A stretch of DNA of 26,025 nt from a virus (Duplodnaviria > Caudoviricetes): positions 1 to 26,025 of IMG/VR virus record IMGVR_UViG_3300017651_000007. One strand, written 5' to 3'. Made by a program: the position numbers and the translations under genes. This document shows positions 17,620 through 25,706 of this stretch, in pieces. The stretch's first letter is position 1. The number at the start of each line of letters is the position of its first letter. The notes below the pieces were generated by a model. That model was not told where the DNA came from, searched no databases, and worked only from the letters and a program-made list of their open reading frames with translations.

Positions 17620-17656
17620 GTCACTCGTTACTTGGGCGACATGACGAGAAAGAAGG

Positions 17657-17944
17657 CCACACCCAATAGCCGGGATTTCGTATTAGCCGACCATCCGTCT
17701 CTGTCTCATGTCCTGAGACATGGGACAGGCCACGCCTTTACGCGGTGGCTGCCCTCAACCTAGACGGAGACGACTACCGTCCGAACGAGGTTGCATCCCT
17801 TCCCTAACGGCCGAGGTACGAACGAGCCGTAGCGAAACGCTACGTCTCTCCCTCCATTGTTACCCGGGCTCGCCAGTGTCGTCGGCGCGGGATGTCCCGA
17901 ACTTCCTCAAGAGTCGCGCGACTCCTGCGGTCGGCTAGGTGTGA
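17657..17944 (-). ncRNA. rnpB: RNase P RNA, compact type-A-like
   Basis: CR-I GAGGAAGUUCGGGA, CR-IV AGACGGAUG and CR-V ACGAAAUCCCGGCUAU. P1, P2, P3, the P4 pseudoknot, P5, the P6 pseudoknot, P7, P15 and P16 all pair in canonical order. Confidence 0.9.
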
Positions 17945-18966: not shown

Positions 18967-19029
18967 TGGTACGCGTCGGGAGCGACCCTGACGCCGTGCA
19001 TGCGCTACGTCCACGGCTCGACGCGTAAG

Positions 19030-19150: not shown

Positions 19151-19750
19151 CTACTGGTCGAAGCGTCCTTCTAGCCAGTCCTTCACGAGACGAGCCTCGT
19201 ATACCGAGTCATCGCCCTCGGCGAGCAAATCGATGATCGCCGGATGCTCACGACGAAGCTGCTCTAGAAGACGAGATGCGTTTGTCCGTTCCTCGCGCGT
19301 AAGGTACTTTACGATCGAGACGTTTGGCGAGTCTCTATTATGGAGGTCACGGTGACAGTTGATACACACCGGAATAGTGCACTGAGACCGGGCGCCGACC
19401 TTAACGTAGTTGGATAGTTCGCGCATCATCCAACGGTTGACATAGTGGTGCCGTGTGGAGTCACCGGGTCGGCCGCAGAGGCGACACTCGGGCTGAACTT
19501 GTCTCTGTGCTCTGTACACCTTCTGGCGTTCAGCGACCTCGGCCGGTGTGGCGCCTTGGTCTAGAGCGTCGCGCAGCGCCTCTACGATCTGGCCCTGCGT
19601 GATGTGAGCGTCCAGCAAGTCATCTAGCTCAACACCTGTTATGGTGGTGAGAAGCTCCAACTGCTCGTGAGTGGCGAGGCGTCCGTTCTTGCCGGTGTCG
19701 TACCACCACTGCTCTCCATCAGGGAGAGTGATCTGTCGTGCTCGTGACAT
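19151..19750 (-). CDS. HNH-like (His-Me finger) endonuclease domain protein
   Basis: CRLC...TRHH...PVCINCHRDLH. Start at MSRARQ with a GAGAGG RBS; the longer ORF start lies inside tRNA-Glu. Confidence 0.7.
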   Translation of the reverse strand: MSRARQITLPDGEQWWYDTGKNGRLATHEQLELLTTITGVELDDLLDAHITQGQIVEALRDALDQGATPAEVAERQKVYRAQRQVQPECRLCGRPGDSTRHHYVNRWMMRELSNYVKVGARSQCTIPVCINCHRDLHNRDSPNVSIVKYLTREERTNASRLLEQLRREHPAIIDLLAEGDDSVYEARLVKDWLEGRFDQ

Positions 19751-19767
19751 GTGACCTCTCTCAGTAG

Positions 19768-19840
19768 TAGCCGGTACGGGATTCGAACCCGTGTCACCGC
19801 CTTGAGAGGGCGGCATCCTAGGCCCCTAGAAGAACCGGCC
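19768..19840 (-). tRNA. tRNA-Glu(CTC)
   Basis: GGCCGGT/ACCGGCT; loop CT-CTC-AA. Confidence 0.9.
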
Positions 19841-20201: not shown

Positions 20202-21587
20202 CTACAGCGCTGCGTTACGACGTACTGTGTCGAAGTCCACCTCGTTGAGGAGGACGCCGTTCTCGAACACCGTGACTAGCTCGTCAGGGAGACCGGTGTC
20301 TCCGCCGACGGTGCGATATCCGTTCTCATCCTTGACCAACGCCAGGCGCCCGCGCTTCGACGCCTTGGAGGTGTCAAGGGGCTTCTTGTAGACCTGGTGC
20401 CATGCCCCGTCGCGCTCCTGCGCGCTGCACTTGAAGGCGAAGCGCTGCATGTCGCGATTGACCTTCTGGTGCAGACCGCCGCCCATGCCGAAGACCATGT
20501 TCTCGGCGCTGAAGCCCTCGGCCGCCAGACGACCGAGGATGCGGACGATGCCGTGAGAGTCGATGCCGTCGCCCCAAAGCACGCGAACGTGCGGGTCGAG
20601 TACCTTGAAGCCCTTGGAGTTGACCGCGCCGCCGAACGACTCGTAGAGTCGTCGCACGATCCACAGGGTCAGGCCCTCGGGCGTCTCGTGGTTCGGCGTA
20701 GTGGAGTCCGGACGCACGACGAATACGCCGTCGCGATCGAGGACTTGCTTGCGGTACGTCGTGCAGATGGCATCCACGAAGCGGTAGATGTCGTAGCTGT
20801 CGGCGACGACGGAGAGGATCCCGGTCGGGTGCTCGCGGAAGAGCTTGTCCACGACCTTCCATTCGCCCTCCTCGCCGAGGGCCGTCATCACGGAGTGCTC
20901 GGTGGCGGGCACCGAGAAGGCGAGACTCGTGATGTCGGCGCCGTAGTGGTTCACGGCGAAGAGCATCCCGAGGAGGGTATCCGTGCCCACCGAGTTCACG
21001 AGGTGTGCCGCTCCGGCAATGGAGGCAGACTCGTCGCTCGTGGAGCCTCGGTAGCCGAAGTCGTGGAGCATGAAGGGTAGGCCGTCGCGGCTGTCGGCCG
21101 TCATGTCAAGGAAGGCCCCGATCGAGTCGATGGTATGACGGCTGAGCGTCGCCACCGTACTCGGGTACCACACGTGCGTCAGGAGCGACTCCACGGCGTT
21201 GGTTAGCCAGTAGCATTCCGGACAGGTGTTCTCGACGGTCATCAAGACGTTGCCGGTCGGGACGACCGTGCCCTCCTGGACCGCCTTGATGCGCAGCGGC
21301 AGACAGCCGCCGTGCACGTCGATGATGTGGTTCCAACCGGCCGCGTTGAAGAGGCTTTCGTCGCCGAAGTGGTACTTTGCGACCAGCGCGGCCTCGGTCA
21401 CGTCGGCGGGGGTCACGACGACGCCTTCGAGCTTGCGAAGGATGGGCTGTAGGCCGAAGAACACGGTGTAGGGGAACTCGGCCCCCGTACGGCTCTCGAA
21501 GTAGGAGTAGACGCCGGTCGTGTCGTCCGGGTACTGCTTCCAGTGGTTGAGCTTGTAGCTGTCCGTCGCGAGGATGAGATTGGTCAT
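20202..21587 (-). CDS. nadV: Nicotinamide phosphoribosyltransferase (NAMPT)
   Basis: Motifs TDSYK.NH..QYP, WYPSTVAT, LHDFGYRG, VPATEHSVMT, SVVADSYD, RPDS and GMGGGL. Confidence 0.96.
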   Translation of the reverse strand: MTNLILATDSYKLNHWKQYPDDTTGVYSYFESRTGAEFPYTVFFGLQPILRKLEGVVVTPADVTEAALVAKYHFGDESLFNAAGWNHIIDVHGGCLPLRIKAVQEGTVVPTGNVLMTVENTCPECYWLTNAVESLLTHVWYPSTVATLSRHTIDSIGAFLDMTADSRDGLPFMLHDFGYRGSTSDESASIAGAAHLVNSVGTDTLLGMLFAVNHYGADITSLAFSVPATEHSVMTALGEEGEWKVVDKLFREHPTGILSVVADSYDIYRFVDAICTTYRKQVLDRDGVFVVRPDSTTPNHETPEGLTLWIVRRLYESFGGAVNSKGFKVLDPHVRVLWGDGIDSHGIVRILGRLAAEGFSAENMVFGMGGGLHQKVNRDMQRFAFKCSAQERDGAWHQVYKKPLDTSKASKRGRLALVKDENGYRTVGGDTGLPDELVTVFENGVLLNEVDFDTVRRNAAL

Positions 21588-22489
21588 CCGAGGAGCCTCC
21601 CACGAAGATAGACGAATAGTTCCTGGTGGACAGGGACAAGGGAGTCTTCCGCCAGCGCGTGCCAGTCGAACCAGCGAAGCTCGGCTATGTCAGATCCCGG
21701 CGTGGGCTTGCCGCTCAGGTGCGTAGCCAGGAAGAGCATCGTCTTGATCTTGTCCACCTCGCCCCGATAGCGCCAGTCATCCACGAGCATGGACGTGACG
21801 TACTTCGGATCGGTGATCTCGATGCCCGCCTCCTCCATCACCTCTCGGCGGGCGTCGGCCTCGTAAGTCGGCGACGTGGGCTCGGCGAAGCCGCCGATGA
21901 AGCGGAACTTATCCTCGTAGGGCTTGCGGCCGAGCAGCAGCTTCGACCCGTCCTCGTTGAGGATGGCCACATCGACGGTTGCATAGTTCGTCGGGAAGCG
22001 GCTGTAGGCGGCCCAGACGACGCCAGCGCGGAACTCGGGCGACGCCTTGACGGAGCGGGCGGAGATAGCCTTGCGCGTCTCCGAGCCGGAGACGAAGACC
22101 TCCTGGACAAGCTCCCGTGTGGGAAGGTTGCCGTGATAGCGACGGATGAACGAGTCGCGGCTGCCGTAGAGGACGACCGACTGCGCGGGCGTCGTCACAT
22201 CAGCGATCATCTCGTCCAGCCGCTTACTCCAAGCCACGTCGCTGGGGTGATCCTTCACGTAGAGAACGTTCACGTCGGGGAAGCGCTCCAGGATCATCTG
22301 CTTGCGCGCTTCGAAGTCGAGCGGATTCTCTCGCGTGACCATGACAGGCGAGAGCCCCAGGAAGAGGATCACCTTGCTGTGTGCATCACAGACGGTCCGG
22401 ATCAGGTCAATATGAGCCTGATGTAGCTCAGGGACCTGGAACCGACCGACAATCACTCCTACGTCGTAGGAGTCGGTCTTTACCTGCAT
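21584..22489 (-). CDS. natV: Bifunctional NMN adenylyltransferase / Nudix ADP-ribose hydrolase
   Basis: GRFQ..LHQAH (HxxH), NPL.F..R, SGSETR, and the Nudix box GGF-x9-ARREVMEEAG; ATGA overlap with nadV. Confidence 0.93.
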   Translation of the reverse strand: MQVKTDSYDVGVIVGRFQVPELHQAHIDLIRTVCDAHSKVILFLGLSPVMVTRENPLDFEARKQMILERFPDVNVLYVKDHPSDVAWSKRLDEMIADVTTPAQSVVLYGSRDSFIRRYHGNLPTRELVQEVFVSGSETRKAISARSVKASPEFRAGVVWAAYSRFPTNYATVDVAILNEDGSKLLLGRKPYEDKFRFIGGFAEPTSPTYEADARREVMEEAGIEITDPKYVTSMLVDDWRYRGEVDKIKTMLFLATHLSGKPTPGSDIAELRWFDWHALAEDSLVPVHQELFVYLRGRLLG

Positions 22490-22537: not shown

Positions 22538-22617
22538 TAGCGGAGGTAGGATTCGAACCGTTTGAGACGACCTCCTGGTTATGAGCCAGGCGAGCTACCA
22601 GACTGCTCTACTCCGCG
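22538..22617 (-). tRNA. Initiator-like tRNA-Met(CAT) with an insertion in the T-stem
   Basis: CGCGGAG start, unpaired C1:U72, loop CT-CAT-AA; about 6 extra nt in the T-stem 5' strand. Confidence 0.8.
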
Positions 22618-22624
22618 TCGAAAG

Positions 22625-22706
22625 TGCCCACACTCGGACTCGAACCGAGACGGCGTAAGCCAACCGGGTTTGAGCCGGTCCTGTCTGCCAATTCCAGCAT
22701 GTAGGC
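22625..22706 (-). tRNA. tRNA-Leu(CAA)
   Basis: Class II variable arm; loop CT-CAA-AC. Confidence 0.92.
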
Positions 22707-22714
22707 GAAGTGAA

Positions 22715-22927
22715 TGAGAGCGCGGCCCTGGCTAAGGGGCATTACGGCGGGCGTCCACCCGATACATCCCGTGGCCTGCGGGACAACGGGCAACTACTGT
22801 CCGCCTTTTCTACGGGTTCAACCTTGAGCCCTCTAGCGCGCCGCCGTCTATTGCTTGGCTTGCCAAAGCCGAGCATCACCGGGCCTAGCAGCCTAGAGTC
22901 GGCCGTCGAAACCACCTCGTGCTCTCA
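22715..22927 (-). ncRNA. Candidate 213-nt multi-domain structured RNA
   Basis: Closing stem TGAGAGC/GCTCTCA, several internal helices and a potential pseudoknot; no convincing ORF. Confidence 0.6.
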
Positions 22928-22929
22928 AG

Positions 22930-23001
22930 TGCCGCCAAGGGGGATCGAACCCCTACTTCCAGCTTGAAAGGCTAGCGTGCTAACCACTACACTATGACGG
23001 C
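22930..23001 (-). tRNA. tRNA-Glu(TTC)
   Basis: GCCGTCA/TGGCGGC; loop CT-TTC-AA. Confidence 0.9.
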
Positions 23002-23137
23002 AGGGCGGGCGTAACCTCGATTGTTGGTTACCTTACGTCCGTCCCAGCTTAGACGGAACCCTCGCGAGGCTCGGGTACCCACGGTAGAGACAAGAACTCC
23101 AACGCCTACGTTCCTCTACCGCCTTCTACCTCGCTAG

Positions 23138-23383: not shown

Positions 23384-23471
23384 GGGATCAGGTCAAGGGG
23401 ACCCTCTTCGTGAGGTGATGGGACATTCCCGGACCGCCACGCGTGCTCGCGACCCAAATCATGACCTGAAG

Positions 23472-24106: not shown

Positions 24107-24193
24107 GAGCTAGCGTGGCGACTACCTACCTCTTGGACTAGAGGCGCAGGAGTTTGAGGCTTCGCCGCCTGCTTGCGTCTTGACCACGCTAAG

Positions 24194-24352: not shown

Positions 24353-24355
24353 GGG

Positions 24356-24614
24356 TGCGAGACGAGGGATTCCACCCTCAACCCCTGAGTAGCGCGCGGG
24401 CGCACTTTCGGTCTGAAATGTCCGCCGCTACTCCTGAGAACCGTCCTCAAGCCGCTAAGCCGCACACGCTGGCTCCAGGCCGCTAAGCCCTTCGCCCATC
24501 CCTCGGCGCCCAGGTTGCTAACCCTGCCTCGGGACTTCTGGCTGTGCCGGGGTCCAGGACACCCGTTGGACGTGCGTTAGAGGCTTGCGCTACCTCTTAT
24601 TCCGCCAGTCTCAT
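24356..24614 (-). ncRNA. Candidate 259-nt tRNA-mimic RNA with a giant variable-region insertion
   Basis: Acceptor-like ATGAGAC/GTCTCGC-A, Leu-type D-arm TG-GCG-GAAT...AA-CGC, T-arm-like GAGGG-TGGAAT-CCCTC, and many internal hairpins. Confidence 0.6.
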
Positions 24615-24639
24615 AGGGACGATGGCCGTCGTCCCCAAG

Positions 24640-25177: not shown

Positions 25178-25268
25178 AAGCGGGGACTTTCACCCCGAAT
25201 CGGTGGCGTTCACCCGTACGGCCGCCTCTTGGCGATCCTCCGGCTCCCCATCGGGAGCGATGTAGTAG

Positions 25269-25706
25269 TGGAGGTGGCGGGAATCGAACCCGCGTCTTCC
25301 GTGCGCCTATCCAGGCAGTTCTCTAGCAGCTTGCCTCGTAAGGCCGAGGGCGCCCACCCCTTGTTACGAAGGGTGATTCCGGGCCGTCTTTCCAGCCTGT
25401 CTTGCACAACTAAGGGGACGGACAAGCTCCGAAACGCCTGTCGTCTTTCCACCACCCGAGTTCTGCGTCGTTCCCAGGAGGCACTCGGGAGCGCCGGGTT
25501 CGACCACGTATTCTGTTGCCCCGTTACGTGAGACGGCGCGCAGGATTACTAAGCCAGCGCGAGGTCGCGAGAAGCCGCCTCAGCAAGAATTGCCTCGGCC
25601 TCCGCGACGGGATCATACGTGCCAGTTATTGGCTTTGCCAGGTCAGGTGTGGCGACCGCTGCACTGCTCGGGACCGCTTCTCACAGAATCGAAGCCGGAC
25701 ACCCCC
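25269..25706 (-). ncRNA. ssrA: tmRNA
   Basis: 5' GGGGGTGTCCGGCTTCGA; 3' GACGCGGGTTCGATTCCCGCCACCTCCA; G3:U70; resume context ATAACT-GGC; tag frame ends LALA-TAG-TAA. Confidence 0.93.

Follow-up and report, generated by a model that had tools for sequence, protein, structure and literature searches.

RNAC and RNAD of phage T4 are the precedent for small RNAs of unknown role in a phage tRNA region (PMC3014915, in its accessible part). The bacterial raiA RNA, as far as the available sections of PMC12968392 describe it, has a closing stem composed of P1a, P1b and P1c with bulges GU and GGU, a P3a-P3b arm with an A-rich kink loop, and a linker after P5 that makes the pseudoknots PK1 and PK2 and thereby crosses P3 and P4. 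About 50 of its nucleotides are nearly invariant, and the alignment includes about 20 minimal variants (PMC10861870, accessible part). The RNA binds KhpA-KhpB at about 2 micromolar (PMC12968392, same sections); it is abundant and required for normal sporulation, its biochemistry being given as unknown in the accessible parts of PMC10861870 and PMC12968392. Here we compare a candidate RNA from a phage tRNA array with these systems. A literature search returned nothing on this element or on phage-borne raiA.

The Glu-Leu slot of a phage tRNA array

The window, i.e. the whole stretch of 26,025 nt analyzed here, is a 26-kb fragment (~16% complete) from the virus record of a large soil phage. It carries protein genes for terminase, portal, endolysin, NAMPT and a cytidyltransferase-Nudix protein, together with 25 tRNAs and one tmRNA matched by Rfam, all 26 on the minus strand. 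Similarly ordered tRNA arrays were found in 13 related viral loci. Of the relatives found, a provirus in Candidatus Solirubrobacter pratensis is nearest, with 79-82% identity in the in-array protein, and a search for further proviruses in 401 genomes gave this same one alone (1/401). The element and its surroundings are as follows.

22715-22927, minus strand: candidate end-closed RNA cassette, 213 nt, RNA position 1 being 22927
22921-22927, minus strand: closing helix P1a, 5′ strand, seven Watson-Crick pairs with 22715-22721
22715-22721, minus strand: closing helix P1a, 3′ strand, paired with 22921-22927
22930-23001, minus strand: tRNA-Glu(TTC), upstream neighbor
22625-22706, minus strand: tRNA-Leu(CAA), downstream neighbor
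17655-17935 (approximate ends), minus strand: cut-down RNase P RNA, from alignment with locus L176

All sequence strings from which the first-pass annotation had built a multi-junction RNA can be found on the minus strand of 22715-22927, between tRNA-Glu and tRNA-Leu. Among them is its terminal helix, which comprises 7 bp, starts 2 nt past tRNA-Glu and ends 8 nt ahead of tRNA-Leu, and a helix of this length at the spacer ends was matched in 0.5% of 20,000 shuffles (p ~0.005). This closing helix is the sole single feature of the element that exceeds chance. Strong helices number 9 compared to a shuffle mean of 11 at ≤ −9 kcal/mol, and 22 compared to 25 at −5.85 kcal/mol.

The tRNA-Glu/tRNA-Leu pair is present in 8 of 13 related loci with spacers of 0, 3, 8, 80, 101, 102, 112 and 114 nt, none of which resembles the element. 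In the Solirubrobacter provirus the two tRNAs directly adjoin each other and the element is absent. Comparison within the window revealed no self-similarity of the element. Contigs of sequencing run X1, which may be the source sample, are identical to the window over 22559-22835 and 22848-23044. In two RNA runs, searched with a query that included the tRNAs, contigs were found on tRNA stretches only and none on the element; three runs with a small share of matches to this query likewise matched tRNAs alone.

For a broader view of such spacers, 256 distinct spacers of 60-400 nt from tRNA arrays of the phage group were surveyed. A closing helix of at least 7 bp is present in 26 of them, with 1.0 expected, and within the window 4 of 14 spacers are end-closed. 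The end-closed set contains the RNase P RNAs of loci L174 and L176; thus, closed spacers in these arrays are often real RNA genes.

Several further elements of the arrays were recorded. The spacer between tRNA-Ala and tRNA-Phe (23384-23471, minus strand, 87 nt) is end-closed and has been retained by the Solirubrobacter provirus, whose array is compact (L013 7303-7399), and as a small RNA candidate it is better supported than the element. Two folded-looking spacers on the minus strand (24107-24192 and 18967-19028) are closed by helices of 8 and 9 pairs, and a third (24353-24639, minus strand) is also folded in appearance. Related arrays contain end-closed multi-branch spacers of 138-188 nt unlike the element (L169 3973-4160, L177 5520-5670, L168 4788-4925). 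The RNase P RNA of the window aligns with loci L166, L174, L176 and L177; it has no Rfam match itself, and L176 matches RF00010 with E 9e-20, below gathering. The tmRNA (25266-25706, minus strand, 441 nt) scores 47.3 bits, barely above the Rfam cut-off, and was missed by ARAGORN. tRNA-Met (22538-22617, minus strand) has additional bases ahead of the T arm, and contigs of runs X3, X7 and X9 are identical to it with different flanks. Between tRNA-Glu and tRNA-Arg, an in-array gene (19151-19816, minus strand) encodes a protein of ~199 aa with 68 homologues, some labelled McrA-like, with conserved Cys/His and no Pfam or PHROG family; this gene is a fixed marker of the phage group. The NAMPT and cytidyltransferase-Nudix gene pair (20202-22489, minus strand) is an insertion within the tRNA array and is lacking at the corresponding site of the closest relative.

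Homologue searches and competing folds

BLAST against phages gave 12 records, all of them chance matches, and no homologue of the element was found in plasmids (6 records), in sets of 5 and 18 related records or in 301 Thermoleophilia genomes, where the best match reached E 1e-4 over 33 nt. Pattern scans of viral sequences gave no match in one case, 12 and 17 matches none of which was alike, and a single, coding-like match. A metagenome scan matched at least 120 loci, and among the matches listed 119 read as canonical raiA and one as chance, so that less common variants may have been displaced; all 20 of the raiA loci examined pass Rfam. Single-sequence covariance models for both strands (33 and 10 loci) and for the minus strand (23, 5 and 5 records and 151 host-family genomes) detected no homologue, such models being weak and having the window as their sole positive control. 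A loose P1c pattern gave scattered matches only in 32 phage records. The homologue searches require exact words or fairly close likeness. The initial proposal of an orphan structured RNA is supported by context, namely the position flush between co-oriented tRNAs, the closed ends and the excess of end-closed spacers (26/256 compared to 1.0), but, as these searches gave no homologue, not by covariation.

Known identities were also considered. Neither ARAGORN nor Rfam calls a tmRNA or tRNA-like molecule at the element; judged by a T arm, an acceptor stem with G3.U70 and an NCCA end, the element has A-U as its third pair and lacks a T arm ahead of the 3′ strand. RNase P RNA, with its conserved regions I and V, was rejected, since there is no Rfam match and the element is unlike the window's own RNase P RNA. 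A resemblance to group I intron motifs was dropped after the Rfam scan.

HDV-like and theta ribozymes fold as a nested double pseudoknot with a P1.1 GG and a C-N-R-A motif. The ribozyme nature suggested by the first-pass annotation found no support: the element has no match to an Rfam ribozyme family at E ≤ 10 and no HDV-like or theta-like fit on either strand, the latter with a descriptor that had no positive control. A theta-like ribozyme (self-cleaving or processing) for trimming of the tRNA-Glu trailer would agree with the start of the element 2 nt after a tRNA, and theta ribozymes share the adjacency to phage tRNAs (PMC10879173, accessible part). Nevertheless, no HDV-like topology was found here and the phage has an RNase P RNA, and we consider this reading very improbable.

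An open reading frame is located inside the element.

22742-22915, minus strand: open frame of 57 codons, GTG to TAA, taken as chance

That this frame, which runs from GTG to TAA within the element, represents a peptide gene is even harder to believe: a search of 5.8 billion proteins (31-100 aa) yielded no candidate, and frames this long should be common at 63% G+C. The possibility raised at the outset that the region encodes a conserved peptide thus gains no support for proteins of that size.

Three folds compete for the element. Model A, on the minus strand, has two pseudoknots and a helix order like that of raiA; model B is the minimum-energy fold of the same strand; model C is formed by the plus strand. 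The parts of models A and B are the following.

22906-22915, minus strand: model A P1c 5′ strand (GUGGUU, invariant in raiA) that continues into a UUCGA 5-mer
22725-22733, minus strand: model A P1c 3′ strand, 3-nt bulge (GGG; GGU in raiA) and P1b
22889-22905, minus strand: model A P3-like hairpin, GCC/GGC with a 7-nt loop
22877-22884, minus strand: model A P4-like 5′ strand, eight pairs with 22757-22764, the first long-range pairing of the first-pass annotation
22852-22875, minus strand: P5-like hairpin, nine pairs and one C.A mismatch, common to every model
22841-22847, minus strand: model A PK2-like 5′ strand, seven pairs with 22744-22750, crossing P4
22831-22836, minus strand: model A PK1-like strand, paired with the P3 loop at 22893-22898; nested in model B
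22746-22805, minus strand: model B long irregular hairpin (RNA 123-182), pair probabilities near 0.9, excluding P4 and PK2

In RNA numbering model A consists of P1a (1-7/207-213), P1c (14-18/195-199), P3 (23-27/35-39), P4 (44-51/164-171), P5 (53-76), PK2 (81-87/178-184) and PK1 (30-35/92-97). The UUCGA 5-mer appears T-loop-like and occupies the place of the U-GAA-A loop of raiA. The nested part of model A amounts to −64 kcal/mol, to which the knots add −12.4 and −5.9 kcal/mol as bare duplexes, while model B reaches −88 kcal/mol without any pseudoknot. Model C (−97.8 kcal/mol) comprises four hairpins under a 10-pair stem and no pseudoknot. If the element is an RNA cassette, fold A with its raiA-like order and two pseudoknots is narrowly favored over fold B with hairpins alone.

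The inner helices described earlier fared unequally. The TGCT...AGCA hairpin (RNA 53-76) is present, but contains the C.A mismatch. The inner hairpin at 97-114 can form as well, at the cost of a C.A mismatch and a 4-nt loop. For the hairpin at 123-143 the strings are there, but three of its pairs are G.U, one position is an A.C mismatch, and the predicted ensemble does not choose this hairpin. Both long-range complementarities exist; individually, however, they are unremarkable, given a strong-helix count that is not above that of shuffles.

The direction of the tRNA array speaks for the minus-strand reading. The minimum-energy z is −0.18 for the minus and −3.79 for the plus strand, the latter being the most extreme z among 42 region-strand tests. 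Model C contains six G.U pairs, four of them internal, to which its advantage is due: without G.U pairs z becomes −0.8 for the minus and −1.6 for the plus strand. In four helices an A.C mismatch on the minus strand corresponds to a G.U pair on the plus strand. Sense-strand z values near zero are normal for knotted RNAs here, as they were also obtained for the tmRNA halves of the window (−0.5 and −0.2), and all 10 true raiA RNAs tested lie between +1.2 and −2.2.

These values bear on the question of whether the plus strand is the working molecule, be it as an inverted cassette or as a fold at the DNA level. Its z values of −3.79 and −3.92 (0/200 shuffles) and the four internal G.U pairs speak for it, as do a promoter-like match (9/12) at 22964-22993, a terminator-like match at 22787-22803 and single inverted tRNA calls in loci L173 and L176. 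However, every Rfam match of the window lies on the minus strand, z is no better than −1.6 once G.U pairs are disallowed, promoter and terminator counts are at chance level with the terminator-like match inside the element, and true raiA likewise folds better antisense in 3 of 10 cases. No direct repeat is visible by eye at the flanks, and the plus-strand covariance model found no homologue. We regard a working plus strand as improbable.

Wobble-type changes towards both strands, as expected from drift, would fit a decayed or neutral GC-rich relic in which the closing helix survives and there is no working RNA. This would also agree with a singleton that is absent from the closest relative and with helix counts at chance level. 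However, both tRNAs lie flush against a closing helix that is intact, the close relative with its compact array indicates that neutral spacers can be lost, and the element fits the raiA-order descriptor presented below. We therefore rate a relic as unlikely, though less so than a plus-strand molecule.

Comparison with raiA RNA

The first-pass annotation had noted that size and layout loosely recall raiA. Helix order and P1c ends do show this resemblance, but the tests for membership fail. The Rfam scan it had proposed gave nothing for RF03072 (gathering 101.3 bits) on the element at E ≤ 10, whereas 20 of 20 true raiA copies scored 135-200 bits. A raiA profile HMM did not match the element, and global raiA profile scores correspond to z 0 to 1. 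With filters off, our own covariance model built from 37 raiA sequences gave 249 matches in the window, none on the element, and in the reverse direction the element's model ranked no raiA above noise on 35 raiA loci. By these tests the element is not a member of the raiA family.

For closer comparison 66 distinct full-length raiA sequences were taken from the metagenome matches listed, of which all 20 examined pass Rfam. A hand map of the element keeps 39 of 69 raiA invariants, a value in the range that shuffles with free offsets reach (37-43); across six settings 28 to 482 of 2000 shuffles did so in the invariant-count test. The P3a blocks retain 0/4 and 1/4 invariants, and a P3b-like hairpin is present. 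The closing stem gives a mixed picture, with P1c and a geometry that fit raiA, no GU bulge, a 3′ bulge reading GGG and one A.G in P1b.

On a descriptor of the raiA helix order, which was tuned after seeing the element, fold A reaches −68.7, equalled by 3 of 1500 shuffles. The element ranks first among 29 end-closed spacers and its plus strand does not fit; as a control, all 20 true raiA tested fit, and in the control displayed the descriptor also chose some non-native raiA helices. GUGGUU and CCAGG lie at most 2 nt from their raiA positions, as do those of 0.1% and 0.9% of shuffles, the two values being partly dependent via pairing. A three-block pattern, constructed as the overlap of element and raiA, occurs in the element, in 41 of 66 raiA and in 5 of 401 host-class genomes, with a reversed control also giving 5. 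The block chain linking element and raiA was reached in 7-12 of 400 shuffles and in 10 of 862 phage windows. The descriptor, P1c-end and pattern tests were shaped after seeing the element, and their odds are therefore flattered. Overall, the likeness between the element and raiA is suggestive.

Descent of the element from raiA/ModT, as a rewired and abundant trans-acting RNA, would be a special case of the RNA cassette proposed below and is possible, if doubtful. Such a remodelling, likewise tentative, would have involved the loss of P3a, an extension of PK2 from 2-4 to 7 pairs, a move of PK1 onto a UAG linker and the gain of a tRNA-type T-loop. It finds support in the raiA helix order with its 3/1500 shuffles and 20/20 fitting controls, in the P1c ends within 2 nt of those of raiA, in the three-block pattern (41/66 raiA, rare in host-class genomes with 5/401) and in the block chain reached by few shuffles. 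Against it stand the negative results of RF03072, our own model, the profile and the reverse model, invariants near shuffle level (39/69), and the missing GU bulge, P3a, A-rich kink loop and PK1 sequence; moreover, the three-block pattern was derived from what the two RNAs have in common. Searches for raiA itself gave none in 151 host-family genomes (where no positive control was detected), in 32 related phage records or, with a single query, in cultured phages.

If true, a raiA descendant with the P1c arm and the order of the two-pseudoknot core retained and most invariant bases gone, delivered by tRNA processing into a host family that gave no raiA in 151 genomes, would reveal the parts of raiA that count and would connect its job with the tRNA machinery. 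It would furthermore offer a natural variant, of the same architecture but with different bases, for folding, probing and complementation of a raiA deletion in the non-pathogenic Clostridium acetobutylicum.

Proposed release by tRNA processing and relation to known RNAs

tRNA 3′ maturation and RNase P cutting are established steps of tRNA processing, and the proposed release of the element is based on them. The element would be transcribed on the minus strand inside the tRNA polycistron. Its 5′ end would be set free when the 3′ end of tRNA-Glu matures. At tRNA-Leu, RNase P, with the phage's own RNA (candidate at 17655-17935) or that of the host, would cut and so release the 3′ end of the element with an 8-nt tail. 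The closing helix would then protect both ends and give rise to a stable trans-acting RNA, an optional accessory of the phage translation kit. It may serve a host RNA-binding protein or nuclease as a scaffold or as a decoy, in either case without catalysis, a suggestion to which we give little weight.

The enrichment of end-closed spacers, which include RNase P RNAs, makes an RNA cassette released by tRNA processing the best reading, and it agrees with a closing helix that is flush with the tRNAs on either side and is reached by 0.5% of shuffles. Against it, the count of inner helices does not exceed that of shuffles, prediction assigns greater stability to the knot-free fold, and the plus strand has the better folding z (−3.8 vs −0.2). 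On balance, the element is likely to be a small non-coding RNA cassette private to this phage in the variable Glu-Leu slot of the tRNA operon, and it is probably an uncatalogued small RNA that is excised together with the tRNAs. The earlier observation is confirmed in part, and its interpretation is likewise supported in part. As the phage group has its own RNase P RNA and tmRNA, the cassette would be part of a fairly complete RNA-processing kit. Phage tRNA clusters contain many small RNAs of unknown job, to which one singleton without homologues adds little.

In comparison to raiA/ModT (RF03072), the element shares a length of ~210 nt, a three-part closing stem with a 3-nt bulge on the 3′ side, GUGGUU and CCAGG at the same places, a GCC-N7-GGC hairpin and, in model A, the order P1c-P3-P4-P5-PK2-PK1 (PMC12968392, in the sections available). 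It differs in that P3a, the A-rich kink and the GU bulge are absent, the PK1 sequence deviates, PK2 has seven pairs, and neither covariance models nor profiles match in either direction. Moreover, raiA is a single-copy bacterial gene, whereas the element is located in a phage tRNA operon. The GOLLD and ROOL RNAs, according to the accessible part of PMC12286853, are likewise phage RNAs with a structured fold and no known function that lie close to tRNA islands, but they are several times larger and form cages, and the element has no Rfam match to them. No relation to T4 RNAC and RNAD was seen by Rfam and phage BLAST, and these are demonstrated transcripts (PMC3014915, accessible part). Like RNAC and RNAD, the element would be a small RNA carried within a phage tRNA operon, in this case one with closed ends.
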